A stretch of DNA of 64,000 bases, taken from Psammoneis japonica. Its lineage: Eukaryota. Of this stretch, positions 482-37,116 are shown piece by piece; positions within the stretch are counted from its first letter, which is position 1; each line of letters opens with the position of its first letter. The notes below the pieces were generated by a model. That model was not told the origin of the DNA and ran no database searches. It was given only the letters and a program-made list of their open reading frames with translations. Location: positions 434,001-498,000 of the forward strand of contig QPGO01000022.1 of NCBI GenBank assembly GCA_008632985.1, written 5' to 3'. Position numbers and translations under genes: made by a program.

Positions 482-1670
482 CTAATTTGCAGAGAGCTGC
501 ACAATGTGTCTGCACATTCTAAAGATTGGACTGCACTTGAGAGCCAACCAAGAGGCACCATTCATGTCCATTGATGTGTCGTCCATCAGCAGGCCGTGGT
601 TGCATGGGTTTCCTGGTCCGCCGTCATCCGTCATCCATTGTGTTCCTTCCAAAGCAAAAACAACAACAGTGTCAACAGCAACTGCAGCAGCAAGGGTGGG
701 ATTGACAGTGTCGGGCATGCCAGGGGGCCGAAACGCAGGTGCGGCGTTAGAATTCGTGACAGCATCTGTGGGAGGCGGTGGGGCGAGAATGAAAGAAGTG
801 TGAGTTACAAGCACTTCGTTGTGGACGTCATTGGCAAAAGACAACAACAGTGTCAACAGCACCTGCGGCAGCAAGGGTGGGAGCAACAGCATCGGGCATG
901 CCAGGGGGCCGAAACGCAGGTGCGGCGTTGGAATTCGTGATGGCATCTGTGGGAGGCGGTGGGGCGAGAATGAAAGAAGTGTGAGTTGTTGGCATTTCAT
1001 TGTGGACGTCATTGGCAAAATGCAATGACAGCATCAACAGCACCTGCGGCAGCAAGGGCAGGAGCAACAGTGTCGGTCATGCTGGGGGGCCGAAACGCAG
1101 GTGCGGCGTTGGAATTCGTGACAGCATCTGTGGGAGGCGGTGGGGCGAGAATGAAAGAAGTGTGAGTTGTTGGCATTTCATTGTGGACGTTGTTGGCAAA
1201 ATGCAGTGACAGTGTCAACAGTGCCTGCGGCAGCAAGGGCAGGAGTGACAGCATCGGGCATGCCAGGGGGCCGAAACGCAGGTGCGGCGTTGGAATTCGT
1301 GACAGCATCTGTGGGAGGCGGTGGGGCGAGAATGAAAGAAGTGTGAGTTGTTGGCATTTCATTGTGGACGTCATTGGCAAAATGCAATGACAGTGTCAAC
1401 AGTGCCTGCGGCAGCAAGGGCAGGAGCAACAGTGTCGGGCATGCCAGGGGGGCGAAACGCAGGCACGGCGTTGGAATTCGTGACAGCATCTGTGGGAGGC
1501 GGTGGAGCGTGCAAACAACAGTGTGAGTTTGCAGCATCTTATTTTGCACGCATCACACCCACGAGAACCGGAATGATGACATCACCTGTTGCATCAGTGT
1601 CATTGGCAACGGTGTCAGCAGGATCGGCGTCCTGGGAAGGCGATGGGGAAGAACCACGAGGCATCATCAT
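482..1670 (-). pseudogene. Degenerate intron-containing gene (probably transposon-borne) with five tandem 28-aa exons
   Basis: ATG at 1670 (MMMPRGSSPSPSQDAD...), donor CAG|GTGATG at 1585, and repeated acceptors with ACTCAC plus a pyrimidine tract ending CCCACAG|ATG. The 84-nt exons encode DAVTNSNAAPAFRPPGMPDAVTPALAAA. The true 3' end is unclear. Confidence 0.6.
640..1530. repeat. Tandem repeat, 181-bp unit x ~5
   Basis: The motif CCGAAACGCAGG recurs at 728, 909, 1090, 1271 and ~1452 (period 181). Confidence 0.95.
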
Positions 1671-1989
1671 GGTCGAGTCGACGAAACGCGTGTTTTTTGT
1701 GCGGAGAAAAAGAGCTCCCGAAAGTGCGCTTCCGACCCCTCGGTTTTTGGTGGTTAGAGTTTTAGGGGAGCTGTGGAACAGGAATTTTTGCTTGTGGAAC
1801 ACACACACACGTGTGGATGTTGACATTAAAACTCAACGCACGGCGAAGCCGTGTGCGCACAACCACGCACACACACACAGCTCCCCTGCCACAGGGGTGT
1901 GCTCCGGCGGTGAAAAAAGACGAAAAGTTTGGCGGTCCATTTTAATTAGAACTCGCAAATGTTTTTAAAAATAACCCGGATTCTTCGTG

Positions 1990-3714
1990 CTTCCTCCAGT
2001 GAGCGACAATTGTCCACGACGAAATGCCGTGTCATTCTTTTTGGGCCGTACATTGTGGCACTGCTTCTGCACATTTTTTGTTCACGCGCCACCTTTCGCG
2101 CCACCGCTAAAACTTTCTAGACTGAGCTGTTGAATCGCTTCTTTTGGCCCGACTGCAGCACAAAATGCCAATTTGATGCACCAGCAGGATGACACAGATG
2201 CTCTGGTGCCGATTCTAAGTGTGTGCCATCAATTCTCTAGAGACAGCACCTTCCAAAACAGCGCTGCTCCAGGTGCGCCTCGGCATCAAACAGCTCCTGA
2301 TTCTGCTCTAGCTCCGCCGTGAGATGCACTTCAGCATCCTCACATGAGTGGTCCATGTTGTTGACCAACATTGAAAGCTTGTTCTCACTCAGAAAATCTG
2401 CCGGGTTGCACCCGTCCCCAATGACATCCAGCGTCGGGTGTCCCACAGATTCTGTTCCACCAGATCAAGGTGCTCAATCACCTCCACTCCGGCGGGATTC
2501 TGCGTCTCTTCTGAGCCGCAAATGTGCTGAAAAAACTTCCAAATTCCACAGTGAAGCAATGACGAACACTTTACGAAATCATCCCTCCCATCACACTGAA
2601 AAACAGCACCCACCACTTGACTGTGGTGCACAAACGACCGCGCGATGGTTCCTTCGGGATTGCACTCATAAATGTGACGAACGGATGCCTGCAGTTGCCC
2701 ACCTGCAAATGTCGACCGCCATTTTCAAGCCCTTGGTCTTCAGTGACCCTCTTGGCCATTGCTGGAAAGAAACGTGCATCCCAAACATTGGTGAGTGGGG
2801 AGTTTGCGGTTGCGGTGCAAGCACTCCCAACTGCGCTGAGCGAATTCACGATCAACAAATGCCAACAGAACCGAATCAATGTGTGGTGTTGCATTGTCCC
2901 ATTGGAACAGAAGGTGCGCTCATTTCCCTGCATCGTTTTCCACCCTCTGAGCAACTGCTTCCATCTTCACCAACAGCATGTTGCGGAAGCAATCCAACAG
3001 TGCAAATTTCGAATTTCGTTCCGTCCCCGAATTCGATCCAGTGACCTCCCAATTCTGAAAGTGCTCCTCGCCTTTACGACACAACAAATCCTCTGCAACC
3101 TTTGGACAATGGAACATTCCACAAGCTCTGTGTGCGTGGTGATGCAAATCCTTCTCAGCCTTCACCTTTCCACCGGCACAAGCACAATCGACCTTGTGCG
3201 GCCACCTCTCTGAAAATCGTTGTTCTGTTGTCAATGTCAATGGCCGTCGAGTTTCATTCAGTGATTGCCGACAAGCACTTGCAGCCAATGATGCAGGAGA
3301 GAGCCATCTCAGGACAATGTCAAGACTGAGTCTGTTGTTGACTGCATGCTGCACATTCGCTCGCCCATTGGCGCCATTGAAACCCGCGACGACGCCGATT
3401 CCACATTCGCTGTCGGGTCGTCCCGCGTGCGGTGTTCCGGCACCACCCGCACCAATTGATTGGATGCTTGGATGTGGTGCAGGAGGGTCCATGGTGCAGG
3501 TGCATTGTCGCACGAAGTTGTGGTTGACGGCACGAGCAACATGTCTCATCGTCGCTGTGGCGGCAGCGGCTCCATGTGTGTTTTGATGATGTCGGGTCGT
3601 GGGTCGTGGATGAACTCCCTCCAAGCCAATTTGCACAGAAGCAGTGCCATGATGCACGGCCCAAAAAAACAACACGGCATTTTGTCGTGGACAATTGTCG
3701 CTCACTGGAGGAAG
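1990..3714 (-). mobile_element. Tc1/mariner-superfamily DNA transposon relic (plant-mariner/DD37-39D-like) with ~85-bp TIRs
   Basis: Inverted repeats at 1990-2073 (CTTCCTCCAGTGAGCGACAATTG...) and 3631-3714. Minus-strand transposase motifs FQWDNATPH (~2881-2907) and PQP-NSPLTNVWDARFFP (~2763-2818), with stops and frameshifts. TG flanks both ends where a TA TSD is expected. Confidence 0.8.
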
Positions 3715-6251
3715 TGCCAACGATGCACGCGTTCGCCAAAAATGTGCTCGCATGGGTCGAACTTTGTCCGTTTGCAAGATGTCATGGAATGCATGCACAA
3801 TGAACACAAAGGTTCGGGATCTCTAGAATGACAACTGCAGATGTGTCCATGGCCAGTCAAATGCCAATTGCTGGCCTTTCCTGGAAAGTCGCTGCTCATC
3901 TGCCACAAACAGCCTGATTTTGGCAAAAAACAGTGGTTTGTCGAATGTGACAACCGCACCCAATGCGACAATTGGCATTTGAAGGTTGATGAGTGTAGCT
4001 CATGTCAAGGTCCAACAGCCCTGATGGGGGCTGGACACACACACAAGTGTTCAGGGGTGCTCAGATGCATCGCAAAACAACACGGGTGAAGTGTGAGCAA
4101 ACCGTCGCATCACGAGCCATTTAAAAAAAAATGCCGCCAAACATCGATCCAGCCTCAACACCAGATGGGTCTCTAGAGGGCCCTGGCTAGAGAGAGTCTG
4201 CTCCCCATCATTTTCCAAGATTTTCCAGTCGTGAAACCTGACAACACCTGAGGCGAGTCCGAACCAATTGTGTGCTCCACCTCCAAACCCCACCCCCTTC
4301 AAGGTTCCAGATTCCTTCTTGGATCACAGCCCACTTGCCAATCACAGCTTCGCAGCACCTGGTGCAAATCCCACTGCGACAGTCAGTTTGTTGCCAGTCA
4401 GTCCCGGGAAGAATGGAAACGCCACCACAAGTTGCAGTCATGATCACGCAGGTCAGGCACTGAAAAGACTCAACGGCAAGTTCAATGCCATGACCTGCAC
4501 AGGCCCTGCATGCTGTGATTGTCGGGTTGTTTGCTGGCTGTGGTCAATGCCAGAACCTGTGTAGATTCTACGTGCTGTGATGAATGGACAATTTTGACCC
4601 CCCCCCCCCTGTCACACGCGGAAGCTTGAGGCGGAACACAGCTTTAATTCTGACTCACCTGACAACACCTGACGACATCATGCATTGCGTGTTTTTGCGC
4701 GATGTCACAGTTGTCCGGTCACAAGGTCAGAAAAATTTTGCAGGTTGAACGATGAGGAGTGCATGTTTTTCAATCACACACATTTGGTGCTTGACAAAAT
4801 GTGACCTGGCAGCCTCGCCTGAAAGGCGCCGCTGCTGCCATGAGACCCAGGCCTCAAGCAACTTGGAGCTGGCATGGCAGGCGCGCTCTGGATGAGTTTG
4901 CATGCCATCACCACGGTGACAACATGGAGAAATTGTCAAAAACCCGCCGGAGCCAATGACGACATTGACGCAGCAGACAAGGTGTCCAAACATTCGTCGT
5001 TTCTTGGGCCATCACAACAGAAGCTCTGTTGGACCCTCATCAACACACCACTGCAATCATCCATTCGGAGATGTGCAGTTCGGCGAGAAATGTTGAAACA
5101 TGCCGTTTTGCTTTGTCGTGACACCATGTTGCATGCAGACGACACATCAACTCACCATTTGCCAGATTTTCGGCACCCGCTGAGTGAAAGTCCAAGTTTG
5201 TTAAAAGGCAAGTGAGTTGAAAATCAAAATGGTGTTGTCAACGCATCTGAGGCTCACCACTTGTTGTCTCACTCAACTTTCTTGCCGCCACAGCCAGCTC
5301 TCACTGTCTTGCCCAGCATGAGCACACATCAACGAATCCAACATCGTCATCACATCGTCAAGCCCATTTGATCAATGGCATTGACCAGACGAACATTTTT
5401 GAAGAATTTGACAGTGCACATGCAATGCATTCAGCCAAGCATTCTTGAATGGGAGAGAGTCGGGCAGATCATGAGAGTGAAAATGAAGAATGAAGTTGGT
5501 GCGCGGTTCAAGAAAAAAGCAGTCAAACATGGTTGACAAAACACTCTGATGCTGTCACTCCACAGAGTGACAAATGACAGTGAACAGAGCTTCTCCCGGG
5601 CTTGCACACACTCTAGATTGATTGCAAAGACACAAGTGTCAAATCTGAAAATGGAAAAGTGCGGCTTGTGAGTGAGCATTCGTGGATTGCTTCACCCACT
5701 CACAGCATGAAAGAGGTCAGACACAGTTGTCACAAGGTCAAAGACAAATTAGAAAGCAGAACATTGCCATAAAATTGGTTTGTGATGATGTTGTCATCTA
5801 ATCTCGGTGTCGAGAAAGGGTCAATCTCACTTCATCGCACAGCGAGTCATGTGTCTTGAATCCCACATGACCCACTCGACTCAAAATTTTGGCAGAACTG
5901 GCTGGACTTTGACCCCAGCTAGAGCCACAAATTGCACAAGACCTGAGCATCATCAGTCTCATGCTCTTTAAACAGGTGCCTTGCGAGAATGTGGCGGGCA
6001 TGCATTGTTTGTGGCATCTGGCATTTCAAAATGGAGCTGGCTTTTCATGGAGCACCTTTGTCACACGGGCAAGTGCAAGAGTCAACATTCAGTGATTGGT
6101 TGGCAACTGACGTTCACCCCCATTCCAGGCCCCCAAAAGTGTGCTGAACTGCACATCTGGATGCTGTCAGTCGATCAAGGTGGGTGTTTGGTTCAAAACG
6201 GGGGGCTAATTTTTTTCACGTGGCATCATGAAGCTGGGACGGAAAGCTGCT

Positions 6252-6803
6252 GACGTGTTCCAGTCCCAGGTGACGCACAAAACGACAATTGATTTTGAAC
6301 ACAAATTGTGCATCTTTTGGTGCATGGAGCATTTTCATGTGAAGTGCTCGTGCGGATTGGCTTTTGTGGGCGGCCAGAGCATGAACATTTAAATGGTTTT
6401 TTGTGGGGCATTCAAGTCCTCATGGGACATGCATCACAAACTTCCTCAGCAGACTCAACACTGATTGTGCATCAGCAGATTTACACTGAGATTTCTTTGC
6501 AGGCAGAAAACCCACCAAGCAGCATCTTAAAAAGACACGTTTGGGTGACATCCAAATGACGGCAACATTTTCACCGAAAATCATCCGTTGTGTTGCGAAT
6601 CTTTTGACACAATGAAAAACACAGACAGCACAACAACAATGACCTTGCAACACTCACACGAGTCTTGTCAGTGTTGCAAAACATTTGTGTTTGCACGAGT
6701 CTGTGCTTTTGGTGGTGAAAGATCGATCGTAAGTTGGGGGCCGCAAAAATCGCACAAATGTTGTTTTGTGCACAATTTGGTTCACGTGCGGCTGGAACAC
6801 GTC
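6252..6803. mobile_element. MITE / non-autonomous DNA transposon, copy A
   Basis: Perfect 12-bp TIRs GACGTGTTCCAG...CTGGAACACGTC and a 4-bp TSD TGCT (6248-6251 / 6804-6807). Homologous along its length to 6973-7528. Confidence 0.9.
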
Positions 6804-6972
6804 TGCTGCATGATGCTGGATGTGCAGCATGTGCAGTGCTGCAGCCTGCAGAGGCACACGAAAAGTTTTGTTTGAATGAAAGCAATGACAATGGACAACA
6901 ACGCAACAGCTGACAACACACAACGCCAAAGCACGGGGAGAGCGGAGAGCGGAGAGCGGAGAGCGACCATGC

Positions 6973-7528
6973 GACATGTTCCAGTCCCAGGCAATGCACA
7001 AAACAACAATCAATTTTGAATGTAAATCATGCATCTTTTGGTGCATGGAGCATTTTCATGTAAAATGCTTGAGCGGATTGGCTTTTGTGGGCATCCAGAG
7101 TGCGAACATTTAAATGATTTTTTTGTGGGGCATTCAAGTCCTCATGGGACATGCATCACAAACTTCCTCAGTGGACTCAACACTGATTGTGCGTCAGCAG
7201 ATTCATGCTGGGATTTCTTTGCAGGTGGAAAACCCACCAAGCAGCATCACAGAAAGATGCACTTGGGCAACATCCAAATGACGGCAATGTTTTCGCCAAA
7301 AATCATCCGTTGTGTTGCGAATCTTTTAACGCAATGAAAAATGCAGATGGCACAGTGACAATGACATTGCAACACTCACACGAGTCTTGTCAGTGTCACA
7401 AAACATTTGTGTTTGCACAAATCTGTGCTTTTGGTGGTGAAAGATCGATCGCAAGTTGGGGACTGTGCAAAAATCGTGCAAATGTCGTTTTTGTGCACGA
7501 TTTGGTTCACGTGCGGCTGGAACATGTC
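6973..7528. mobile_element. MITE / non-autonomous DNA transposon, copy B
   Basis: TIRs GACATGTTCCAG...CTGGAACATGTC and a 4-bp TSD ATGC (6969-6972 / 7529-7532). Confidence 0.9.
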
Positions 7529-8061
7529 ATGCCAACAAAAGACAACCCAAGATCCAAAGAGCAGCAGGAGCTCAAAAGGAATGCCAAGAACACAAAAGGA
7601 AAGAGAAGGAGGAGAAAGCGATGCGCAAACAGGAGCAAAACCGGTTGCACAAACAGAAGAGTCGAGAGCGGCAGAACGAAGAGCAGATCGAGTGGGAGAA
7701 AGTCGCTCGAATCGAATGTCGAGAATGTGAAAGGCTGGAGAAGGTGGAGAAGCAGGAACGCCAATGAAAGCAAAACCGGGAGCGCAAACAGAAGAGCCGA
7801 GAACGGCAGTGCAACGCATCAGTCGTGGCCGACGGCAATGATGCCAAGACCACCAACGGCAACACGCAGCGCAACTTGAACACGGGTGTTGGTCGAGCAC
7901 CCAGACACAGTCCTGGCGATGAAGAAGCAAGTGCTCGAAGATGGAAGAAAGTGTCATTCCCCACACACGAACGCTCACATCATTGTCAGGAAGAGCGAGC
8001 AAACGTGAAACCAGGACAATTGTACGTGCGTGGATTCCTGACACTCCGTCTTGCCATCTGA
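7529..8061 (+). pseudogene. Relic charged/coiled-coil ORF whose ATG lies in the MITE B target site
   Basis: ATGCCAACAAAA (MPTKDNPRSKEQQELK...) followed by K/E/R/Q-rich frames broken by a frameshift and a TGA. Confidence 0.35.
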
Positions 8062-15831: not shown

Positions 15832-18800
15832 ATTTTCAGCCTGTCAGGGTTCTCTCCAAGTTCAGAGGGTTATCCACGCTAGATGAATGTAAGCACAGCT
15901 GTACATGTCGAAGGCTTGGAGGAGACTTATAGATGCTACCTGTGCTTTGGCGTTCCTCAAGATAGTACGGCAAGATTATTGACGGCAATCATTTCTTTAT
16001 AGAACTAGTAACCGCGACTCCGACAGACACAACAACGTCATGTTTTTGGTCCAAAACTACCTTTTTGTTTCTGCCTAGATCCGAGGTAAACGATTCGTTG
16101 TCCTCTGCCTTGCTTCTGCCATGCCCCGAGCAGGAAAACAGATCCCATTTTCCTTTGTGATATGTTGAATGCAAGATACGTCTTCTCTCGACAATTGAAA
16201 ATACTGGGAACTGTTCCTGGTTTCTGCGCTCGCAAAATGACATAGAGACCGCTTGTTGCAAAAATACACAAGAGTCTCTTTTTGTCGTTTCGTCCTTGAA
16301 CAACAGGTTTTGCTCCTTGTTTCAATGTTCGCTGCAGCTAGACTGTGATAATACTTGCGCAGAATAGATGCTTGTTTGGAGTCTATTTCTCGATGTCCAT
16401 GAATGATGACCTGGAGAATGAAGATCGCTTCGGGCCCACCTGTTCAACACTTCCCAGTGACAGGAATTGCTCGTGAGAAACAGTCAGTGGTCATTGTCAA
16501 CAAGTCTTTCAACAACTGCAGCATCATGTCCAAGTCTCACCAGTGGCCTCACAGTTCTCCTCAAACATTGAGGAGCCAGTGCTGTGGGTGTGCAAGTGAC
16601 AGTGCTTGAGGATGGAAACAACTGGCATCACACCAGCAACAACAACGTTGATCCTGTGTGTGTTCACTTTGCACCCACATCATCCCAAGAATCATTGCAA
16701 AATGTTTGATCACTGTGCAACACAAAACAAGAACAATGGAGAGAATGTAAGAAATTGGTGGACAAAGGCCAGTGCACCAGAGCCAAGGATTGAATCATGG
16801 CATTGTCCAAAACAAAATTCTGTCAAATGTCATTGCCCCATGCTCCACACAACAAGACAGCCCCTTCTGTTGATGAGATGGCTCTTGCACCTCAAAACAA
16901 ATGATGTTGTCTTGGCATGAGAGCACAGCAATGGTTGAGACAAAAGCCCATCACACAACAGACCAAAGAGCAAGCAATGAATGAGAATGTTGTTGTGGGC
17001 ACTCCTCTGGCTGGGAATGGAGGGAGATGTGGCAGGAGCAGTGCAGCATGAACACTTCATTGCAAGCACTGGTTGACTGTCACATCATGATTGACAACAA
17101 ACTTGAAAGAACTGGTGCATGGTGGCTCACAAGTGCTGCAGGAACAACAGCTCAATTTGCTTTTGCTTGACAGCTTTGTCATTGGCACCTGCATCCAGTG
17201 CTGTCAGAGCCTTGGTGGGACATGTTGTTGGCCAACAGGCTCCTGATCCAACAAAGCACAACAAGATCCTGCGTTGATTTTGAAGATTTGTGTCACAATT
17301 TTCAAGGTTGTTGTGCCCTCAAGCAGCTGCTGGATTGAAGAAATGCTCAACAGCAAGATTGTCAAATTAACAACCACAAAGTGGACTGCATCACAAAGCA
17401 CCTCAGTTGTGTTGCATCACCCATGCAAGGACATCATCAGCACCCCTTTGATCTCAACAAGACTGACCCAATGAAAAAAGCTGCACTCAGAAGCAAGGGC
17501 ATCAAAGGTTCTTGGCAAGTGAAGAAACAGGTCTCAACCTTTTTTGCACCTCTCTCTAACTTTCAAAAGCACATGTCCTTGCCCATGCTTCTGCAAACTG
17601 TCCACAGATGGGCTGCTCTGTGGTGGCTTTGCCTGCAGGGACCCCTTTGCAATGAGGCAGCATTTTGCAGCTGTGTGGTGGCTCCAATGTTTGATGTTGA
17701 TGACATGGTGGCCAAGTGCAGAGACACATGTTGTTGGCTTGCTGGCTCCTGCCAGAAAAAACAAACATGGGTGGCAACCAGCCAGTGCTGAAAACTTCTG
17801 TGCACTTGGCAGGGCTCTCAGCTGGCTGTGCTTCAACAAACTGCTTGTTGCAGCTGGCTTGCCTTCTGTCAAACCCCTCAATGTGGTGGTGCACCCCCAG
17901 CAACCCAGTGCACATGGTTGTGCTGCAGCAAAGATTGTTTGAGCTGCCTTTTCAAAAGTTGCTGGGGACCTTCAGTGGTGAAGCAAGCAACCATTGCTGC
18001 CCCTGCAAACAAGTCAACATTGCTGGCTGGAGTCAAGAGTGGCCCAGGCACAGAAAAAGGAAAATGCAAAAATGCAAAGCTGTCTCTGTCCACTGACAAA
18101 CAGTTTGCTTGCTTCTCCACAGCCATCATCTCATCAATTCTTGGGGTGGCAAAGAAAGCAGTGGCAGCCCTCTGTCCCAGCTTGCTCCAATGGACAGAGA
18201 GAAGACATGAGGCTGCAGAGAACAGAGATTGTCAGACCAAATTGGAGCAAATCAACTCCATGACATCCTGCCTCATTGCAAAACACAACAGCCAAACCAG
18301 AACAAAGTTGGCATGCAATGAACACTCTCTCAGCTTTGTTTGTGGCAACAAAAACACAGAAAAGCTTGTTGAGTGACAGACCAGCCACCATTCTCAACTT
18401 TGAAAAAGGCTGTGGCATTGTTGAGCTTGTTGCAACTTGCAACAACATGAGGTGTCAGCAAAAATGATTGATGAGACTGTGGGAATTTTTGTGAGTGAGA
18501 TGCTGGCTCCAGCTCCAAGTGCTGGCACACATGTGTGCCTTGATGCCCCCTCCCCCCCACACACACACACTTCAGTGCAAAGTTCTTCTTCAATTTTTGA
18601 ATCTTTTTTTCAAAATCACAAGGTGAGTGTGCACAAGTGCATGCTCCACCAGCCCAGCATTTCTGCTGTGCAGGTGATTTGGAACACCCAGCCAAGTTTC
18701 TGTTCTTTTTGCAGATTGGTGATGTGCTTTGGCCACTTGGTTTGGCTTTTTGCCATTTGCAATCAGGTGTGAGATCACCACTTGTTGACTTTGCTCTTGG

Positions 18801-19559
18801 CTCTGTGCTGATGTGCCCCCAACCCAGCATCTCACTTTGCCCCTTTCTTGTTTGAAGCAGTTGGTGCATGTGCACAACAGTGGTCCACAGCTGACAGCCA
18901 TGCATCCCCAAGGGAAGCTCTCTGGCTCTCCAAAATGAGCAAGGGTTGGCAGTCAAAGAAATGGATTTGACTTGGCAGATGAAAGTGCACAAGAACCTCC
19001 CTTGTTGCTGCAGAAAGGAAGCACTGCAAAAGCAAGAGATGACAAACAATGGACTTTGTTGTTTTGTGTCATGAGGCACTGGGAGAGTCCAGCCCAGATC
19101 ATGAGCAGCAGCACACAAGCATCCAACCAGGAGAAAGAAGATCATGAAGGACAGCAAGATTCAGCCAGCAGCACAGAGAGTTTAATAAAGAAAGCTCATG
19201 CTCTGATGGTGGCATGAATGCCAAGGGTTGCAAAAGAGTCATTTTGTGGTGGAGCAACAAGGGGCATTGCAAATTGGTTGTGGTGAAGTGCAGATTGCAG
19301 ATGGCAATGCCATGTGAGCCACCCACAAGCAAGTTGGTAAATGCCAAGCCAAAGAGCCTTGCATGTGTGCCACATGGCAGCATCATTGTGGTGCAAGATG
19401 AAAAAAAAACAGATCCAATTTATGGTGCTGCCACTTCTTCACCAGCCAGGCCAGTGCTGGCTGACTCACACTCCCAGCACATTAAAAAAAATGCAGTGCC
19501 AGAAGGTGACACCCAATTGAAGTTGCTGAGAACGGCTGGAGTGCTGCAAAGCCTGAAGA

Positions 19560-20700
19560 GCTTCACTTCCTTTGTGCTTGCATTCAGGCATGGTTTAACT
19601 GCAGAGACCCATTTTTTGTTCTTGTTGTGTGAGTGAGCAAGGTGCTCCCCACATTCTCCATCAAAATGTCACAGTCCTTGGCAAGGCATTCTTGTCTTTT
19701 GTTGTAAATGGCAGTGAGTTCAGCCTCTCCCACCCAATGCTGCAAGGACTTGTGAGATTTGATGTCAAGGCCATGCACTTTCTTGTTGTGCTCTTCCCAC
19801 AAGCCTCACCAGGAATTCCCAATGCATGTGCCTGTCTGCACTGGCCAGGTGGGTGGCTGGTCATTCTGTTCTTGACATTGATGCAGAAGACCCAACTCAC
19901 ACAGACACATCTCCTGAAAGGCACTCCACAGTCATGAGAACCTGCTGTTGAACATTTGCCTCCATCCCATGTCACTCTGTTGTGCCACAAAGAATGCAGC
20001 ATCAGATCTGCGTCTGAATCACAGAAAAATTGGCCATGGAACTGAGCCTCCAGAGACAAGAGAAGAAAATCACACAATGGAGGCATGGTGCCTGACACAT
20101 TGCAATGTCAGTGCAGTCCTTGAAGAAAAGTGCAATGCCAAGGTTTGTTGTCTGGGCAACGGAGAATGTGATCCCTGTCTTCTGCCCATGGGGTGGTCAC
20201 AAGAGAGGCAGGAGTGAGGACAGACTGGGTTGTGCCAATGGACAATCTTGTTTGCAGGCAGCAGCTCACAAACCAGTTTCGCTGTTGAGATGTGTTTCTT
20301 GGAATGCCGGCGGATCAATGTTTTGTGGACAGGCCAATCCATTGTCTGTCCATGACTGACAATGACCAGCCATTGCCACTCTCTGATGTGCTCCAACAGT
20401 GGAAGAGCTGCAGCTGCACATCGTGTGGCAGCCTCATGTCCAGCAGTGATGGCACTGTCCTCTGGACAGAGGCAAGCCTGACAATGAGGGAATGGGATGA
20501 CCTGAGAAGTGTCGTGATCACACAGACCTTGACAACACCCTGCCAACATGTCAGCTTGGACATTGATCTTTGCATTTCTGTCAACCACCCACTTTGTCAA
20601 ACAAGGGTGGCTGTTGGTGCTGCCACTTTGAATGACTTTGCAGTCAGGCACAGAGCAGTTTTTGGCAACTGCAATTGGATGTGCCACTGTCTCCCAGCTC
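19560..20700 (-). mobile_element. 3' part of a non-LTR retrotransposon ORF (RNase H end + zinc-binding region), degenerate
   Basis: NVQADMLA (RNase H N..AD.LA), MDW...KLVCELLP...CPHSCLSC and WEEHNKKVHG resemble LINE C-termini. Confidence 0.5.
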
Positions 20701-20867
20701 TGTGGCTTCCTCCTGGGCTTGAGAAACTTTGTCCTTCTTGCTTGGCCTTGTGACACATTGGTGCAAATCATGCAAATTTCATGTTTGTTGCTGTGTGGGG
20801 TGGGTGTGCTTGTTCACCAACAAGTTGCAACCCATTCCAATGAAAAACAATGGAGGCTTCAAAGATG

Positions 20868-21348
20868 CTGTGTGCACAGGGCATTTGTCTCAACAGCCTC
20901 AGTTTTGACAAGAAACAAGTGTCCCACCAGCACATGTCAATGGAAAGCACCACAACACAACTTGTCATTGAACTGCCCTCACACAGCAACTTCTCATTGT
21001 TTCTTCTGACCACAAAAACAGCACTGCTGCCATGACCCAAAAGAGCACAGTGGTGTCCTGAGTTTGGCTGGGTTCAAAAGGGTTGCTTTGATGAAACCCA
21101 GGGATGTTGAGGACACTGTGTGCACAGGGCATTTGTCTCAACAACCTCACTTTTGACAAGAAACAAGTGTCCTCCAAGCACATGTCAATGAAAAGCACCA
21201 CAACAAAGCTTGTTGTTGCACCCTCACACACCAGCTTCTCATTGCTTCTTCTGCCCACAAAAACAGCACTGCTGCTGTGACCCAAAAGGGCAGAGTGGTG
21301 TCTTGTGCTTGGCTGGGTTTAAAAGGGTTGCTTTGATCAAACCCAGGG
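20868..21348. repeat. Tandem duplication, ~248-bp unit x 2
   Basis: CTGTGTGCACAGGGCATTTGTCTCAAC...AAACCCAGGG occurs at ~20868-21103 and ~21116-21348. Confidence 0.9.
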
Positions 21349-24300
21349 CCATTTGTGCACTTGTCATGCACAGAAATTTGTGCCAAAACCATGCTTGCAC
21401 TGTTGGGGCACACAACTTGTTTTGTGCAAAAAAAAAATTGAGCACAGCAGCAAGGGCACACTTTCCATGCATTCTGTGCCAAATGACTGTGACTCTGGCA
21501 AGAAGGCAGTCCTGGCTGTCATGTCAAAACAACTGCCATGCTGCACACTTTTCCTTTTTTGAGTGAAACCACCATGTTGTGCACTTTTCTCTTTTTGAGT
21601 TCCTTGTTTCTCCTTGGCAACTTTGGTGGGGCCACATCTTGTCTTTCTTGCACAAAACAAATCCCAGTGGCTTTATGGAGAGGAGCACAACTTGTGCTTG
21701 GGTCCTCTTGTGCTCCTTTGTGAAGGACATCAACATCTGCTTCTCTTTGGTTGGATTTTTTGTTGCGCACTTTTTGCTTCTTGAATGATGCCTTGTTTCT
21801 CCTTAGTGTCTGTCAAGTGGACATTGTCAGCCAGCCCCAATGTGCAGTCATTTTCAGTGTCACCCTGGTGGATGCTTGCCATGCCACCAGCAAGGCTTCC
21901 CACATGCCATCACACCATGGTGCACCCCACAAAGGCACCAAAATGTGTGTTCTGGACCTGTCCAAACTCACCACATGCTCCCCATGCACCAGGCAACTGC
22001 TTGCATGCTGTGAAGCTCCATGGTCATGTGCTTCAACCAGGAGACACATCAGCACAGAACTGTGCAGGGGAGTTGCACACTGGAGCCCACTGCCTGGACA
22101 CACAGCACACCAAAGTTGTCCCACCCCTGGGTTCTCACCTTGGCCTGCTGCCACACACAGTGGCATGCTGCAACATGATGATCTCCCCATGGGCTGTGGT
22201 TTGATCCCTCAAAACAGTTCCCCATTGTTCTGCATCTGAGTGCAATGTTGCCAATTGCTCCCAGAACACTCTCTGCTTGGCAGGGCCATGTCTTGCCTTT
22301 GCAATGATCCTTTTGAGGAACACCAAGTGATGCCTGGCAGTTTGTGGTTGGATTGCTTGTGTGCCTCTGCCCTGTCCTTGAGAATGAAATTAAGCTGTTG
22401 TGCCAGCAACTGTGGCAGAGTTGTTGGGGCTGATCTGACAACCTTTGAAGACAGGCAAGCAATTTGTGTTGCCAGATTTTTGTTGTTCTTGTTGTTTTGC
22501 ATGGCCAGCTGCAGCAGTGGTTTGCTTCCAACACAAAACTTGTTCCGTGCAACTTTTTTGTTGGACCAGCTCTGGCTGCTCATGATGTTGGCTGCCACAG
22601 CAGAGAAAAGTCCAACATCCAACATGTTTTTTGTCAACAGAGCTCCCCACCAATTGTCTCAAGTTGGACAAAGACAAGGTCAATGTTTTGCCTCCCAAGC
22701 CAAGCCCCCCTCCCACAAAGCAGCACACCAGGCAGTGCAGCACAAAGTCGGCCGGAAAGTCATGTGTGCCAGGAGCAATGTGAGCAACAATGTTTTTGCC
22801 AGAATTGTCAGAATTCATGAAAGCAGCAAAGCTGGACACTGCACTGGTGTTCTCTTCTTCAATGAGCAAGAGAACAGACAAAGATGGCCTGACAAGCAAG
22901 AGTCTGTCACCCACCCCACAAACACCAGCACCCAGCACAAAGAAAGGGCAGGACATTCTCTGCCACTGCAACAGCAAGCTGTGTGATGGCCAATGTTTTC
23001 AGCAGGGTGTGCTGTGTGCTTTGCTTGGCAACAATGATGTCATTTCAATCCAATGTCAAAGCTCATGATGGGCCAGCTGTGCACATGAGATTGCTTGCCA
23101 AGAGCCTCAAAGGCACAAGCTGCCAAGCTGTGGCAGGGTGCATGAGCTGCCTTCAGTGGCAGCAAATGCTGGAGCCAACCCCAATGTTGCCACCTGTGGC
23201 TGTGCAATGCTGCACTCACATCTGAAACAGTCTGAACCAAAAGCACAAAAGAGCTGTTGCAGGGCATGCAAATGTTTGCATGATGTGCAATGGCAAGGGC
23301 TGGCCATTGAGCAAGATCTGTTGAGAAAGGTTGAGCATCATGTGGACATCAGCTGGGCAGGCTTTTGGCAAGACTGCCTGTTCAATGAGATCTCCCTGTC
23401 TTCTGTGCACCCTCAGCCCCAAGCACTGCTGCAAAGCACAGCACATTGTGTCACTGTGTCCTCTGCTTTGTGAGAAATTGTTGACATCACAAGCTGTGTG
23501 GAGGAGCTGAAGCAAAGAAGTTTTCTGTTGATTGCTGCAATTTTCAGAAGAAGGTTGTGTTGGGCGTTTGAGGAGAACAACTCACTGTGCCAGCCACAGA
23601 AGCACCTGTCTGCACATCTGCACCACATGCTGCATTTGTGCCAAGCCAACGGAATTGACAAGCTCGTCAAAGTGCATGACAAGTCAGCATCATGGCCTTC
23701 CTCATCCAGCTGCCAGGGAGTGAAAGGAAATCATGAATCTCCTGGCTGAGAGGCAGATCTGCCAGCAGCTCTCTCATGCACCTGAAAGCAAGTCAGGCCA
23801 TTGCAAAAGTGGAGATTGTGGGGCTCCTGTTGATCACCTTGCTCCCCCCCTCCCTCTCACTTTTGCCACAAGCACACTTTGCTCTACCATTTGTTTGGCT
23901 GGGTGCTCTTTTGACGACTCTTGCAAATGCAGCAACAAGCCAGATGCATGGCTCAAGCCCTGATGGTTGCATTTGATTGACTCAGCTGGCTTGTGAGCGC
24001 ACAACATCATTTGTGCAAAGAAAAAAACAAAAGTTGCAGCTGAGCTGTGACATTCATTGTGAGCAATTTCCTGCTGAAATTTCAACAAAAACTCCTCACC
24101 AACCATGCTGAGAGTGATGCTGTGATGCTTGTTGTCATGTCTCATTCCGCATTGGAGGCACTTGTTGTGAAGGGAAACCAGCGTTGGCCAGGTGCTCTTT
24201 CATCTGCAATCACACAGGAAAACAATGACAGGGCTGAGAGAGAGAGAGAGAGAGCCAACATTCTCTGATGTGATGGCCCAGCTGAGTGTCAGTGCTTGCC

Positions 24301-25377
24301 AAAAAGAAGTGTGAAGTTCTTGGACGACAAGGGGTGCTGTTTGCTTTCAATGCTTGTCAGGTGTGTGGTCCACCCCCACCCAAATGTCACATTTTTCTCA
24401 TGACACAAGAATCAAAAATGATCCAGAGTCCTTGAGTCAGGGCTGGCCAACAAAAAAGAAAAAGCTTGCTGAAAGCTTGCGCACTTCAACATTTGTTTTT
24501 GAAGCAAAGCAAATGCCTCCCCCCTCCAAGGCAGGGCTGCTGGAGATTGGTGTGCCAACCTTGTCCAGCATTGCTTCACATCTGTTGTGGAAACAATTTG
24601 CACACCTGACACAGCAGCACTGAGCACATTGCAGCTGACTGCATCTCTCACATTTGTGCATGAGTGCACTGACACCAGCACCCAGCAGCTGCAGCAGAGA
24701 TGTTGGGGTCACGTGAGATGGATGACAAGGGGCATGTGGCAAGAATCCTGGCATCCATTGCTGCACAGCATGCAGGGGTGTGTTGTTGACAAGGTGGGCA
24801 AGTGTGGAAATTTTGCTGCAAGTGACATGTGCAGGCTCCTTGTGAGAAGATTGCTGCACCAGCAGCAAGAAAGAGGGAAGAGAAAGGAGGTCTGAGTTTC
24901 ATTTCAGCAGCAGCAGCAGAGCCAAGAAGCTGTGGAATGGCATGCAAGAAAAATGGCTGGTGAGGTGGTTGATGTGGAGCCACCAATGGCGTGGGGGACA
25001 GAGCTGCGTTGATCAGTGGAGCAAGACATGCAGTTGTCGCATTGAGAGCTGTCGTCACAGTCAAAAGAGTAAGGGAGCAAGGCCCAGGAAATGAGCACAA
25101 AGATGGGAAGTCTCGCATGCGGGCCACTGCACGAAGTGCTGTAGACGGTACCACGACACCGTGTGAATATTTCTCGTATGTAGGAGGTATACTACGAGCA
25201 CGTATCAATCGATTTTGGATGCAGTTGGAAGTCGAAAAAAATAGAGTTGAATGACAATAATCCACAATGGGTGTGGGTGCAAACCCCGTTCTCGCGTTAC
25301 ACCGCTGGACTTGTAGCCCCCTTGCATTGAAAAGTAGAGTTGTCACGTCCTCCCTGTCTCTTCCATATTAGGACGCC

Positions 25378-31926: not shown

Positions 31927-33911
31927 TCTGAATGCAGGTCGTCCCTTTGAGAGCCAGTTGCTGGGATAACTGTTGTGAGGGGGGAGAGATGCTGTAGACT
32001 ACTGTAGAGTAAAGAGACTTGAAAAAGTGCTAAAGGATTCGAATTCTTGCTGTGTGCTTTTTCCTAAATGCAAAACATTGAAGCAGCACGGAAGCAAAAC
32101 TAGAGCGAAGCTAAAGTCCATCAATGAATGTTTTAGGGTGAAACATTTTCAATTTTGGTCAAGAAGCGAACATGCGCAGGCCATTGGGGTAACATGATCA
32201 TCTATCTACGACTAAGTCTTCGTTGAATTCCAACACGGCGTCGGGCAGGCAGAGCGGATGGATAGAATGGCTGGCTAGAGCCAAGGCATGGATGGATGGC
32301 ACTGGATGGATGGAATGGACAGCCATGGATGGAACTCATGCCGAGCAAAAAGCACATGGAGCCATGCCCATTCACGATGTGTCTTTTTCGGATGTCATGG
32401 ATGCACACAACAGATGGCTCCCACCTCAAACAGCCACATTGCCCATGAAGTGTCGTAAGTTGAAGAAGATGTGTTGGATGTTGATTCCCAGGTGGACATT
32501 GCAAGCGCCACTCCAGTGAGCATCAAGACAACTGCTTTGCCTTCTGCCTCACATGTGACCTCTTTTGTTGGAGTTCTCACATGTTTGCAGATTCCAAGTG
32601 GGGCCCAGTTCACACATCTCCTGCCAGCTGTGCTGCTGACAACGTGTCTCAAGCTGCAGATGCATCAGCCATTGGTTCCCAGATGGACACCTCGAACAAT
32701 GTTTGGATGAGTGTCAAATGTCTGCTGTGTCTCACCTGAGCCATCTGCAGCAATTTTTCATTTTGGCTTGCTGCTGTTCTCCACCAGCTTGATGGCATGC
32801 TTTCATCAAATGACAAGGCAAGCCTGCTCCAGACCTGCAGTGCTTTTGTTGTTCTGGCTGTGCAATGGCTGTCACATGCATCAGATGGGCAGATTGTCAG
32901 CTTGGAGGCTGTGCTGCCTGCTTGCTGCCTCTGTGATGCCATGGTGTGACAGCTGTGGCGTGGGTGCAGTCAATGCTTTGGTGGTGGCCAAATCAACTCA
33001 TGCTTGGATTTTTGGCTCTGACAGCTGTCAATGATTTTGGATGCACAAAGCCAGCACCATTGCTTCTCTCATCTGAGCAAGCATGACCAGTGGAAGCTGG
33101 GCAACTGTGAAAGGGGGCGACCAAATGTTGTTGCACCTTCCACCACTCTGTGACCGCTTGACCTCTTTCCTCCACAGTCAATGCCGTTGTCATGCTGCAC
33201 AGTGCTTTTCATGGGGTGCTCCTGACTTGTCAATTGTTGCTGGCCACAATTTCACAGTTCCCACCAGCCAGGGGAGAGAGCAAGAACGTGGCAAAGAGGA
33301 AGCATTCAAGCTCAGCAAGCATGGAAGAAACTGTCATGATGATGCCTCATTTGGGAGCCCATGTTTCAAACAGCAGCTGCAGCCTGATTCTCACTTGCCA
33401 TGCACCCAATTTCTTCTGACATTGAGTTGCTCAATCACAAAATGTTTTTGTCCTGCATGTTTTTCAGGTTTGAAGAATGGTGTGGGGCATGTGTTGCTCA
33501 ACAAGATTTGTTGGAAACTGCTGATGATGCTTTTTGTCGAAGTTGAAGTTTTTGGTTTGTGCTGTGCAGCTGGGCCTGGCCATTTGTTGCATCATCTGGC
33601 TTGCCAGCTTGCCACCTTTCTGTTGAAAGGTTGTTTTTGTGGTGCACTGTTGCAGCTCTGCGATCTTCACTTGTTGGACAGACATTGCAGATCAGGAGAG
33701 AGCAGTGTCAGCATGCGCTGGACCTGGGTGCATGTGCAGATCTCTCTGAGATCTCTCACTTTCTTTCATCTGGCATCATGCTCACTGATGCTGCTGTCCC
33801 AGCATCTTGTTGGGTCACTGCCCATGCATTGTTGTGTGAGAGATCTGCTTGGCTGTCTTGTTCTGGCTGTTGTGCAGTGATCCACAGAGTTGGTGTGCTG
33901 ACAGCGATGGC

Positions 33912-33913
<2 letters not shown>

Positions 33914-33982
<69 letters not shown>
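33914..33982. repeat. (GA)n microsatellite (shorter tracts at ~24236, ~35237 and ~35543)
   Basis: Perfect GA dinucleotide run. Confidence 0.98.
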
Positions 33983-33984
<2 letters not shown>

Positions 33985-34099
33985 GCTGTTGCCATCTCAA
34001 GCCAGTCAACAAGTGCATCACAAGATTGCACTTCTGCCTGAAAAAAAGCAAAAAGTGGAAGAGAAGTGGAAGTTGGGGGCAGTGTTGGCAGAAGGGAGC

Positions 34100-35542
34100 A
34101 GACGACAAATTACAAAAAGTCGCACGCAAGCAACCATCTTACTTTAAAAGCTCGTTGTACCTCAAGAATGAGCTGGTCCAAATGGCAGCACCACCAAACT
34201 GCCTGCTTTTCACCTCTGATGCCAAGTCCTGCTGCTCGAACATCCCAACAAACAAAGCCCTTTGAGCAATTGCGGCCTGTCTATGATGACACAAGAATGA
34301 ATTCCAAGACGCACCAGCAGAAGCCCTCATTGAAGCCCTCTGCATCACAATGAAACACAGTGTCTTTGCTTTCGGTGACACCACATGGCTCCAACGCAGT
34401 GGCACCGCAATGGGCACACCACCTGCCCTGCCACATGCCACGCTCTTTTGTGCTCTACACGAAGCCACTCTCCTGGAGGAGTTTGGCACAAACCTGGTTT
34501 TCTGCAAATGATTTATGAGTGACGTCTTTGGCATCTGGCAAATTGCCAAATCAACCTCCGACGCCACTCGCTGGAATGCACTCACCTCCAGAATGAATGA
34601 CTGCAACATCAATTGGGTCACGAGTCCAAGGGCCCACCAAGCAAACTTCATGGACCTCACCATCACACTCCAAGGCTCCAACCCACACACCACTCTTTAT
34701 GAAAAAGAAATGAATTTACACCTGCACATCCCTCCACATTCAGCTCACCCACCTGGAGTGCTCACCGGCCCAATTGTGGGCATGCTCTTTTGCTTCAAGA
34801 ATCTCTGCTCAGACCCTGCTGACACAAAAGCAAAGATGAAACTTCTTTGCCATTGACTGCTTGCTTGAGGCCACAAGCCCAGCAAGCTCCAACCCATCTT
34901 CCAAAAGGCATGCAACCACCTCTTTGGCAATGAAACAACTGTGAACAAGCCCCCAACCAATCCTCCCATCTTCCCACATGTCCCATGCCATCTGAACAAC
35001 CCACCATCCAGCAAACTGCAAAAGACATGGAAAGGAACGATGGCCTCTCCACCACACTCCCAGCCACTTGCCAACATTCAAAATCACAACCAACAAAACA
35101 CATTGGCCCAGACCACATGATCATTTGCTGCAATTGGTCAGGCAACCTTGGCAACCTTCTTTTGTGCCACATCCTTCACACCTCCAATGGCCCCCCAGTT
35201 TCGTCCCACCGGATTACAAGCAGGGAGGCCACTGTGAGAGAGAGAGAGAGAGAGAGAGAGAGTGCAATGACATGAATTCAAACTGAATCAATCGACTCAA
35301 ATCACCTTTCCCTTGCCCCCGAATCTTTTTAACATGACAACCTCAACCACGTAAACAACAACAGTCAGCCGCTGATGAAGCCACCACACGAAAGTCTCAC
35401 TCCTGACTTCGGCCAACGTTGTTGTGCCTGCCATTCACTGAAACAGTTGGGTGAAGATCTGAGCTGGTGGCTCCACCTCAGCTGCTCTCATTCTTTGTTT
35501 GTCATGTTTGACAGAGAATTGGCTGCACCAATTCCTTTGTTT
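34100..35542 (+). mobile_element. 5'-truncated Penelope-like retroelement (RT + thumb; no GIY-YIG seen)
   Basis: Motifs LFTSDAKSCCSNIPT, FAFGDTTWLQRSGTAMGTPPA, K*FMSDVFGIW, FMDLTI, TTLYEKEMNLHLHIPPHSAHPPG and NLGNLL. In-frame TGA stops. Confidence 0.85.
35356..35424 (+). ncRNA. Type I hammerhead ribozyme (Penelope-associated)
   Basis: CTGATGA core at 35372-35378 and GAAA at 35390-35393. Stem III is AGTC/GACT. Stem I is CAACAAC-A-GTcaGCCG / CGGCcaAC-GTTGTTG. Stem II is minimal. Confidence 0.7.
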
Positions 35543-37116
35543 GAGAGAGAGAGAGAGAGAGAGAGAGCTGCTTTTGCCATCTCAAGCCAGTCAACAAGTG
35601 CATCACAAGATTTGCACTTCTGCCTGAAAAAAAGCAAGAAGTGGAAGAGAGGTGGAAGTTGGGGGCAGTGTTGACAGAAGGGAGCATCCCTGGAGAGTGG
35701 CCTGCCATGCTTGCTGCCAGCAAGCACTTTGTTTGGGGCTCTTTCTGTCTCTCTCTTTTCCAAAAAAGAAAGGATGAAATGCACAGCAGAGCATGTGTTT
35801 TGATGCCAGCCATGGAGGTTGCAGCTCTCTTCTCCTTCCCTCAAAGGTTTCTCATGAAAAAAGACTCCAGAACTTGAAGATTCTTTCTGCTGGGGCTGAT
35901 GGCATTGTGACAAGTTTGTTGCTGCAGTGTGGAAACTGCCAGAGAAAAGAGAAACAGTGGTGAGTTGCGATGTGACCATGTGTGCCCTTTTCTCCATCTT
36001 TCATTCCAGAGATGAGAGCACCAAGTTTCGTTTCTCATTCCTCTCTTTCTGAAAATGTGTTGCCACTTGTGGCTCTCTTTCCTGGGCAACTCTGCTCATG
36101 TGAAAGAGTGCGCCTTGTTCTTGGAGGAGCGCCGCAAGAGTGAGGGGGCGCAGGAGTGGGAGCAAGAACCAGCACTCGAAAATTTGGTGCCTGGCGGAAG
36201 CAGAAAAGGGCCTCTTGCTTGTCAATGCAGCAGGGATGGTCACCATGACCACTTTTGGACTGAGCCACTTCTTTGTCCCCTCCTGGCTTTCTGGCTGGGT
36301 GGCAGAGCGACCTGGGATTTTTTGACTGCTGGTGTGCTCGCTTTGACTGCCGGTGTGCTTGCCATCACAGCTGCAGAGCCTTGATTTGTGCTTGGTCACT
36401 TGGCTTGATGAAGTGGACTCCAGATTTGTTCCATTCCACCAGGGGCATTTTGTTTGTGCTGCTCGAAAAAAGGCTGGAATCATCGATCCCACATTGTTGC
36501 ACACTGCCCTGCTCTCTCCATCCACCCCCTTGTCACCTGGCTGGCGCCTGGCTGTACAAGAATGCAGAATCTGGAATCTTACTGAGTTGCTTCTATTTTA
36601 CCCTTTTGTACCGGTTACTTGTTCCTGTGCGTAGAAATCCACTGGGAAACATACCAAGTTTCCGCCGGGGCAACTTTTAGTGATAAATTCGACGGTCAAG
36701 AGGTAGGTTGACGATGACGAAGGTTGTTGCCGCCGCTACTCCATTTGAATTGTTGTCGACGATTGACAAGCCGCTGTTTATAGCCGTATTATGTTTGCTG
36801 TTGGTAATGTTGGCGACCAGATTGATCGTGGGGAGAGCAGTGCTTGCAACTGGATGGGGAGCACCGCGGTGTGCGTTGTAGCTACCATGAGGAACAGAAA
36901 CAAACCTTCGGATGCCACTTGGATCGAATGAACTGAATCTGATATGACTGATATACTTTGTGTTTTCGATGCAAGTGCTTGGTATTTCGAGATCGAACCC
37001 GTTCAAGTTGAAAGACCATAGAGTTCGCGTTTCATGTAGTGTCACTCATTCGTGTCTTTCCTCTTGTTTTCAGACTTTTGTCGGTTTCCACTTTCGTTCA
37101 ATCACACGCTGGAATC

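Follow-up and report, generated by a model that had tools for sequence, protein, structure and literature searches.

Four TA-poor blocks in a diatom contig and the context rule of their TpA loss

The stretch described here, 64,000 nucleotides of the diatom Psammoneis japonica (contig QPGO01000022.1 of assembly GCA_008632985.1, positions 434,001 to 498,000; hereafter the window), is gene-dense eukaryotic DNA of ~48% G+C, with genes for a fused tryptophan synthase alpha-beta and for DUF3727, WD40, DAO, and GCV_T proteins. About one third of it consists of four blocks, B1 to B4, from which the dinucleotide TpA has nearly vanished. An earlier note, based on the sequence letters, had drawn attention to B2 and proposed that the few TA sites left there obey a context rule, with TAY lost faster than TAG and TAG faster than TAA (Y, pyrimidine; R, purine). 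These blocks, the rule, and the process that could have produced both are the subject of this report.

Composition and edges of the TA-poor blocks

The observed/expected ratio (o/e) of TA is 0.03 to 0.10 in the blocks vs 0.59 in the remaining window. CG, at 0.99 in the remaining window, is also reduced, to a different degree in each block (Table 1), and TG and CA reach 1.63 to 1.97 vs 1.15. Among the dinucleotides ending in A, the depletion is confined to TpA; CA, AA, and GA are not lost, AA/TT standing at 1.15 to 1.40 in blocks and 1.13 in ordinary DNA. The blocks hold no Tyr codons, and TGA is nearly the sole stop, TAA and TAG being nearly absent. Compared with one another, the four show no mutual resemblance. 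The edges of B2 are sharp, with ordinary TA density until 16384 and dense TA again from 25143; its left edge lies at ~16385-16480, not at 16740 as previously noted, and its right edge at ~25140. At that right edge (24990-25142), CG returns ~80-150 bp ahead of TA, which means that the two depletions end at different bases.

For a negative control, contigs were drawn from a metagenome scan that took the tryptophan synthase gene as its query and were used for this purpose only. The scan gave 80 loci, three with 76-88% identity to the window's gene and the others mostly at ~60%. With block-like composition defined as a TA o/e below 0.15 plus a TG/CA mean above 1.5, none of 1478 1-kb windows (0.8 Mb of unrelated contigs) qualified, and TA-free windows were absent from all 80 loci.

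No credible Pfam domain was found in the 51 + 69 + 75 open frames of the blocks; these include 51 open reading frames (ORFs) of at least 90 amino acids and the 49 ORFs of B2 with 55-89. Pfam matches that did appear were rejected, being low-complexity matches at a (GA)n tract or weak, sub-threshold ones such as F-box_4. A search of the blocks gave no Rfam match and no tRNA. A 300-amino-acid frame in B1 (2923-3822, minus strand) had no homologue in a homologue search, and such a frame is expected by chance because TGA is almost the only stop there. B1 also contains an 80-bp inverted repeat of 91% identity (1990-2069 vs 3636-3714), possibly the ends of an old element.

Table 1. Blocks and other features of the window, in window coordinates
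Feature	Position	Strand	Description
B1	1..8022		Least exposed block; TA o/e 0.10, CG o/e 0.69
B2	~16385..25142		Block of the earlier note; TA o/e 0.03, CG o/e 0.05, TG and CA o/e 1.86-1.97
B3	~32277..36554		TA o/e 0.05, CG o/e 0.21
B4	62089..64000		TA o/e 0.05, CG o/e 0.14; continues past window end
Tandem array, ~181 bp x 4.7	654..1558		In B1; copies differ chiefly by TG<->CA doublets
Two tandem copies, period ~721 bp	6252..7528		In B1; TG<->CA differences
B2 segment	19169..20502		Additional contigs; summed depth ~2x rest of B2
Reverse-transcriptase-like retroelement gene	34065..35218	+	5'-truncated, degenerate; 26-homologue profile, positions 247-639 of 643, score 386
Direct repeat, left copy, 144 bp	33958..34100	+	Flanks the retroelement remnant; right copy 35543-35686; 96.5% identity

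Contexts of the surviving TA sites

Between 16740 and 25075, about 15 of ~16 surviving TA sites had been said to lie in TAA or TTA. The interval contains exactly 16 TA sites, 15 of them in such contexts (TTAA six times, GTAA four times, TTAT twice, and CTAA, ATAA, TTAG, and CTAC once each). The remaining counts of the earlier note were equally well founded. Six of the seven TA sites in 62000-64000 are in TAA or TTA, and CTAG survives at eight places in block 1-8020 (2118, 2238, 2309, 3824, 4174, 4188, 5614, and 5920), where the claimed near absence of GTAC, ATAT, GTAT, and ATAC amounts to a single GTAC and none of the other three among 48 TA sites. The check it proposed, a comparison of NTAN depletion between contexts, was run within the window, and depletion in the blocks relative to ordinary DNA is unequal from one context to the next.

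In the ordinary DNA of the window, 37.5% of 1620 TA sites are in TAA/TTA, a share of 0.378 in ORF-like and 0.372 in non-ORF parts. With block ends trimmed, the counts for B1 to B4 are 36/48, 13/14, 9/12, and 5/6 (binomial p = 1e-7, 3e-5, 0.0095, and 0.03), and for the four blocks pooled 63/79 (p = 2e-14). TTAA makes up 22 of the 79 survivors vs 3% of TA sites in ordinary DNA, and RTAY 2 of 79 vs 30%. ATAC/GTAT and ATAT are missing from all four blocks, whereas at their ordinary densities (6.36 and 2.40 per kb) ~53 and ~20 would be expected in 16740-25075. TTAA, by comparison, retains 0.40-1.15 of its ordinary density in the blocks. B1 keeps CTAG, CTAA/TTAG, and TTAA among its survivors, and the relative density of CTAG and CTAA/TTAG is ~0.52 there and 0-0.08 in B2. 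Within B1, the eight surviving CTAG against one RTAY give p = 9e-7.

A second null model, in which TA arises anew as the sequence of the blocks themselves undergoes random substitution (transition weights of 1, 3, and 10), predicts a TAA/TTA share of 0.43-0.46. Against it, the counts for B1 to B4 are 36/48 (p = 2e-5), 14/15 (1e-4), 9/12 (0.03), and 4/4 (0.04). The context rule is the trace of a mutational activity, not of chance or composition.

Rate model and the base 3' of the adenine

We modeled the tetranucleotide families by likelihood, with the loss of TA acting through the adenine of either the top or the bottom strand at a context-dependent rate and CG treated likewise. Context-dependent rates improve on uniform depletion by 42, 53, 9, and 17 units of log likelihood (lnL) in B1 to B4 (chi-square p = 4e-16, 1e-20, 0.005, and 8e-6), and a rule set by the base 3' of A is preferred over one set by the base 5' of T by 13.6, 20.7, 3.3, and 6.5 lnL units. 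Survival alone cannot separate these two rules, which are told apart because their products differ: lost ATAA/TTAT resurfaces as TTGT/ACAA, not as ATGA/TCAT. For calibration, ordinary DNA was mutated in silico, with eight runs per simulated process. The difference lnL(3'-of-A) minus lnL(5'-of-T) stayed within +/-3.6 for a context-free process, and ran from +0.8 to +25 under a 3'-of-A rule and from -9.5 to -21 under a 5'-of-T rule.

In B1, fitted exposures with bootstrap ranges are 0.03 (0-0.41) for TAA, 0.48 (0.20-0.98) for TAG, 2.0 (1.46-2.66) for TAC, and 2.7 (2.09-3.72) for TAT, and the TAG rate falls below both the TAC and the TAT rate in 120 of 120 bootstraps. The fitted model also accounts for secondary changes in B2, where AT and GA/TC fall and GC and AA/TT rise, with a squared error of 0.113 vs 0.259 under uniform depletion. 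The claimed ranking TAY > TAG > TAA thus emerges from the survivor contexts, the likelihood model, the CTAG vs RTAY comparison, and the Cys found at Tyr codons preceded by C (see below).

The earlier note had also named A as the mutated base. That the base 3' of A decides the rate stands; by sequence, TAY is indistinguishable from R-T-A on the other strand. All results are symmetric in this way, and a rival account accordingly takes thymine as the damaged base, with a hydroxylase of the 5-hydroxymethyluracil or base-J type marking T in 5'-R-T-A-3' of silenced DNA and the modified T then mispairing or being repaired to C, so that T>C would be the main outcome. Base J and dinoflagellate 5-hydroxymethyluracil sit preferentially at TpA. 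A literature search on DNA modifications in diatoms gave nothing relevant. We consider this account unlikely, yet it is the one among the rivals that deserves most attention.

CpG loss follows a ranking of its own in B2 (TCG 2.5 > CCG 1.8 > GCG 1.3 > ACG 0.8), and in B1 CpG exposure is slight (0.05-0.24) while TAY stands at 2.0-2.7. The two losses bear on a second rival, error-prone patch repair, in which mismatches from deaminated 5-methylcytosine would recruit a polymerase like DNA polymerase eta (Pol eta), with misincorporation opposite T at WA (W, A or T), the Pol eta hotspot, much as happens in phase two of antibody hypermutation. This would link CpG loss to TpA loss and would explain A:T>G:C transitions. 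However, the signature suggested for comparison by the earlier note does not fit: AA is not depleted while TA drops to 0.03-0.10, and ~90% of TA is gone from B1 where CG is down only ~30%. A strict 3'-pyrimidine rule is, to our knowledge, no trait of Pol eta. A part in noncanonical mismatch repair is ascribed to the polymerase in the cited passage of PMC7884765, and we hold the patch-repair account to be very improbable.

Conversion in place and on both strands

The sums of flank families (N-TA-N + N-CG-N + N-TG-N + N-CA-N) are conserved between blocks and ordinary DNA. For the family with A on both sides, ordinary DNA has a sum of 38.8 per kb and B2 one of 38.2 per kb; in B2 the gain goes to TTGT/ACAA (+12.7) and barely to ATGA/TCAT (+1.0). 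Within the two tandem repeats of B1, the copies differ largely by TG<->CA doublets. In the ~181-bp array, 20 TG<->CA doublets make up 40 of the 70 mismatched bases, and between the ~721-bp copies, 16 doublets make up 32 of 66, with 61 of the 66 being transitions. Doublets of this kind are to be expected if an ancestral TA or CG resolves independently in each copy.

A second version of the locus is available in contigs of sequencing run X1, which comes from the only sample found to contain the stretch; no RNA run is listed as containing it. These contigs reproduce B2, and pieces cross its right edge and the left edge of B3. Contigs running onward suggest that the left edge of B2 and the right edge of B3 are crossed as well. 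The X1 contig over 16837-24418 has 24 differences from the window (~99.7% agreement). Six of these turn TA of the window into TG or CA (17369, 19184, 19187, 19338, 19597, and 21804), and one, at 21814, runs in reverse. There is a clean TG<->CA doublet at 20703/4 and a second at 24900/1, just past the end of the X1 contig. At 23190-23192, CCA stands against TTG in the two versions, and CG stands against TG or CA at 18411, inside the contig, and at 24909 and 25053, just past it. The signature of the blocks thus also separates two versions of one locus. Taken together with the tandem copies, these differences show the process to be recent and to act in place.

Seven of the TA sites of B2 (19183-19705) lie in the segment with additional contigs (Table 1), and many additional contigs also pile on 33843-35843 in B3. 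Elsewhere in B2, summed depth is that of a single contig (one run, 80% threshold).

That chance, composition, or an assembly artifact produced the blocks is scarcely credible. There are, admittedly, just 79 surviving sites from one window, and the ancestral state is represented by a proxy; yet the pooled excess departs from both null models, read-derived contigs recover both the blocks and their junctions with ordinary genes at the agreement given above, and the control windows contain nothing alike.

Neither strand is favored. TG and CA number 1035 and 1026 in B2, and a runs test on their order gives z of -0.4 to -2.5 in the blocks vs -1.0 to -4.0 in ordinary DNA, with no strand-coordinated TG or CA runs in the blocks beyond those of ordinary DNA. 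Balance without clustering speaks against a transcript-based or strand-processive process. One such process would be hyperediting of retroelement transcripts from A to I by an ADAR-like enzyme, fixed by reverse transcription. One block does bear a retroelement, and A>G is the ADAR outcome; still, TG and CA are equal and interleaved on one strand, differences between tandem copies and between locus versions lie in place, and most of B2 has no retroelement signal. The slower loss of TAG than of TAY is moreover opposite to the UAG hot spot of ADAR2, as stated in a passage of PMC10661471. We regard such RNA editing as a highly improbable source of the blocks. The direction of change, its action in place, its strand symmetry, and the ranking of contexts are established.

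A reverse-transcriptase remnant with a known ancestral state

B3 is older TA-free DNA carrying a younger retroelement insert. The insert includes a degenerate reverse transcriptase (RT) gene between direct repeats (Table 1), with a (GA)34 tract at 33914-33982 before the left repeat; being 5'-truncated and lying between 144-bp direct repeats with (GA)n, the remnant resembles Penelope-like elements. Its family comprises 1228 homologues at E <= 1e-3, proteins of 600-700 amino acids (among them P0122-P0124 and P0126-P0275). Pfam RVT_1 appears sub-threshold only, in one of five members, and a sequence-profile search with the family profile against solved structures gave no match. The predicted fold of homologue P0122 (predicted local distance difference test score [pLDDT] of 88) matches TERT (3du5_A, E = 1.6e-9) in a fold search, and also LINE-1 ORF2p and the RTs of group II introns and retrons. 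By this model, the predicted fold of the family is nearest to telomerase TERT. In the catalytic YxDD region, homologues carry RYIDD, where the window copy has FMSD.

Because Tyr is encoded only by TAY, conserved Tyr columns reveal the ancestral state. The remnant covers 11 of them, now occupied by TGC (Cys) four times, CAY (His) four times, Phe twice, and TAT once. In 125 homologues, columns of this kind hold Tyr 578, Cys 5, and His 12 times (n = 660), and the Cys/His excess of the remnant is significant (Fisher p = 2e-10). All seven conserved Arg columns are likewise changed (TGA three times, TGC, TGG, and CAC twice). The replacement of Tyr by Cys or His, together with the altered Arg columns, indicates directional T:A>C:G and CpG change. 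Among Tyr codons preceded by C, three of four became Cys; the 3'-of-A rule predicts ~0.82 and the other rule 0.18 (p = 0.019).

This Cys bias, like the TTGT product split, is independent of the survivors, which matters for a further rival. It supposes that TAA and TTA were largely re-created, with a TC-preferring cytosine deaminase turning TCA into TTA and removal itself having little TAA bias. Consistent with it, TCG outpaces every other CpG context in B2 (2.5 vs ACG 0.82), five of seven TA/non-TA differences between the B2 versions are TGA/TAA or TCA/TTA pairs, and B2 keeps more ATAA/TTAT and GTAA than survival at high exposure predicts. However, re-creation cannot produce CTAG, whose excess over RTAY in B1 is given above, and TTAA in B1 and B4, at 1.51 per kb, is near its ordinary 1.31 per kb. 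TCA/TGA, moreover, lies just 4.9 per 1000 under the model prediction, and TT/AA is not above it. Large-scale re-creation is improbable in our judgment.

One open member of the RT family, P0190 (351 amino acids), has no Tyr at five conserved Tyr columns (Cys at one and His at three), as seen among the 150 homologues listed. It contains 18 Cys, 25 His, and 3 Tyr, with Cys and His in excess at conserved Tyr and Arg positions. Its cluster (P0190, P0276, and P0277) comes from JGI/IMG and ENA assemblies, and two members differ by Tyr88/Cys. These marks imply that further public assemblies contain mutated copies; their source may be this diatom or a relative of it.

Other genes in the window

The tryptophan synthase is 81-86% identical to proteins of the diatoms Odontella aurita, Fragilaria crotonensis, Thalassiosira, and Nitzschia. 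Between B2 and B3, a gene at 30646-31926 (plus strand) fuses an FGE-sulfatase-like domain to an S-adenosylmethionine (SAM) methyltransferase domain, an architecture we take to be that of OvoA-type ovothiol synthases. At 53752-56077 (plus strand), a DAO (flavin adenine dinucleotide oxidoreductase) frame is followed directly by an FAO_M + GCV_T frame; the two look like one gene of the dimethylglycine/sarcosine-dehydrogenase type that a stop or a short intron interrupts. Where the DAO-domain gene begins, a single N (53467) has an exact 227-bp duplication on both sides (53240-53466 = 53749-53975) and is, with that duplication, probably an assembly gap artifact.

In a further run, X2, the contigs covering the genes between 25300 and 32035 lack GT..AG-bounded pieces, as spliced RNA would (27006-27108, plus four gaps between 29087 and 30536). 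X2 thus has the character of an RNA run, and short introns are present in the genes that separate B2 from B3. X2 leaves B2 and B3 almost without cover (summed depth <=~4, three bins, loose ends on both sides), which is not evidence of silence.

Discussion

On balance, and with moderate confidence, we read the TA-poor blocks as the record of a directional base conversion with the ranking TAY > TAG > TAA, enzyme-like and aimed at silenced repeats. In these four noncoding, sharply delimited blocks of a nuclear contig, which derive at least in part from retroelements, TpA is converted in place, site by site and on both strands, to TpG or CpA (T:A>C:G), and CpG likewise becomes TpG or CpA. How fast TpA is lost depends on the base that follows the adenine on its 3' side, with TAT and TAC about equal, TAG slower, and TAA far slower. 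Survival of a site therefore requires TAA on both strands (TTAA) or, while exposure is low, TAG or TAA on each (CTAG and CTAA). The agent would be an enzyme-like base converter directed at silenced repeat DNA, working beside CpG decay, in which B2 loses YCG faster than RCG. The most economical candidate is an adenine-to-inosine deamination at 5'-T-A-Y-3'; an attack of different chemistry, on the T that pairs with this A in 5'-R-T-A-3', would leave an identical trace.

Several observations weigh against this reading or restrict it. Because the X1 version of the locus comes from the one sample that contains the stretch, it is no independent witness beside the source of the assembly, and for most of B2 one run shows no second copy at least 80% alike, so that a dependence on repeats is no more than possible. 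Ordinary, largely coding DNA of the window serves as the ancestral proxy, from which the true ancestral composition of the blocks may differ. The B2 exposures (TAA 0.12, TAG 1.91, TAC 2.80, and TAT 3.00) are lower bounds, because B2 is saturated, and TAG is separated from TAY in 92% of B2 bootstraps and in 62% for B2, B3, and B4 pooled. In B1 alone, TTAA and CTAG differ in survival at p = 0.065. The model leaves trinucleotide misfits (AGC/GCT +14.8 and GAA/TTC -12.3 per 1000), and the flanks of the tandem-copy doublets (R..Y 13, mixed 17, and Y..R 3; n = 33), which are few and non-independent sites, match its prediction only roughly. Two Tyr codons after C or A took the unfavored product. Finally, some of the surplus of TAA/TTA may stem from re-creation (TCA>TTA) instead of resistance.

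Where hypermutation is targeted to repeat regions, nearly all known cases are C-to-T change, by repeat-induced point mutation (RIP), APOBEC-type editing, or CpG decay. Erasure of TpA through T:A>C:G, in B1 ~10 times faster than CpG decay, would give a major group of algae a new kind of genome defense or of damage by base modification. More specifically, the diatom might use natural adenine deamination in chromosomal DNA at 5'-T-A-Y-3' as a genome defense, perhaps sharing its deaminase or targeting with CpG>TpG change; this we put forward as a tentative and rather doubtful proposal. Natural A-to-G conversion in DNA stands a fair chance of being new chemistry. We know of no natural DNA adenine deaminase, and adenine base editors had to be evolved; if the proposal is true, the enzyme would be the first natural one. 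In a search of full-text literature, which did not cover subscription journals, hypermutation that erases TpA was not described for diatoms or any other organism. A rule of three bases (T, A, pyrimidine) offers a fingerprint for seeking the responsible enzyme, and with the composition they have, the blocks will mislead software for finding genes and repeats.

Among known systems, methylation-driven CpG decay resembles the blocks in the change of CG to TG/CA in B2 to B4 (CG o/e 0.05-0.21) and in the seven altered Arg codons. It explains no loss of TpA, however, which leads CpG loss in B1 (2.0-2.7 vs 0.05-0.24). ADAR hyperediting of double-stranded RNA also turns A into G and prefers U on the 5' side, but in B1 TAG is 4-5 times slower than TAY, and the changes of the blocks are strand-symmetric and in place, whereas ADAR edits cluster on one strand.

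TadA, ADAT2-3, and TadA-derived editors likewise make A>G changes with a 5' T or U, as the blocks require a 5' T, and they favor a 3' C; in the tRNA target of ADAT, A34 follows U33. The likeness to TadA-derived editors suggested by the earlier note may be a partial one. The 5' T agrees with it and TAC is lost fast, but TAT is lost at least as fast as TAC and CA (CAC) is untouched, and since CA is not lost, the required 5' base is T, not Y. The substrate, too, is different, being chromosomal DNA over kilobases. ABE8e-A48E, by comparison, prefers YAC according to the cited passage of PMC13109818. Parts of PMC3239186 cite a trypanosome Tad2/3 enzyme for A>I on tRNA plus C>U on DNA and describe deaminase families specific to stramenopiles, which provide no more than a lead.

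A close parallel in behavior is RIP in Neurospora and other ascomycetes, with the RIP-like CpG/TCG mutation of basidiomycetes, where transition hypermutation strikes sharply bounded, silent repeat DNA as in the blocks. In both, the change occurs in place on both strands, at a dinucleotide target with a flank preference, and coding capacity is destroyed (in the blocks, Tyr to Cys or His, and Arg to stop). Diatom DNMT4 is, in the portion of PMC9998398 cited here, related to fungal RID and of unknown function, a lead for the CpG part of the process only. RIP differs in turning CpA into TpA, so that TA is enriched, whereas the blocks turn TpA into TpG or CpA and keep a TA o/e of 0.03-0.10; the main change of the blocks, T:A>C:G, is one that cytosine deamination cannot give, and the host is a diatom. 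As the process removes TpA where RIP makes it, the blocks would represent a RIP-like defense of opposite polarity.

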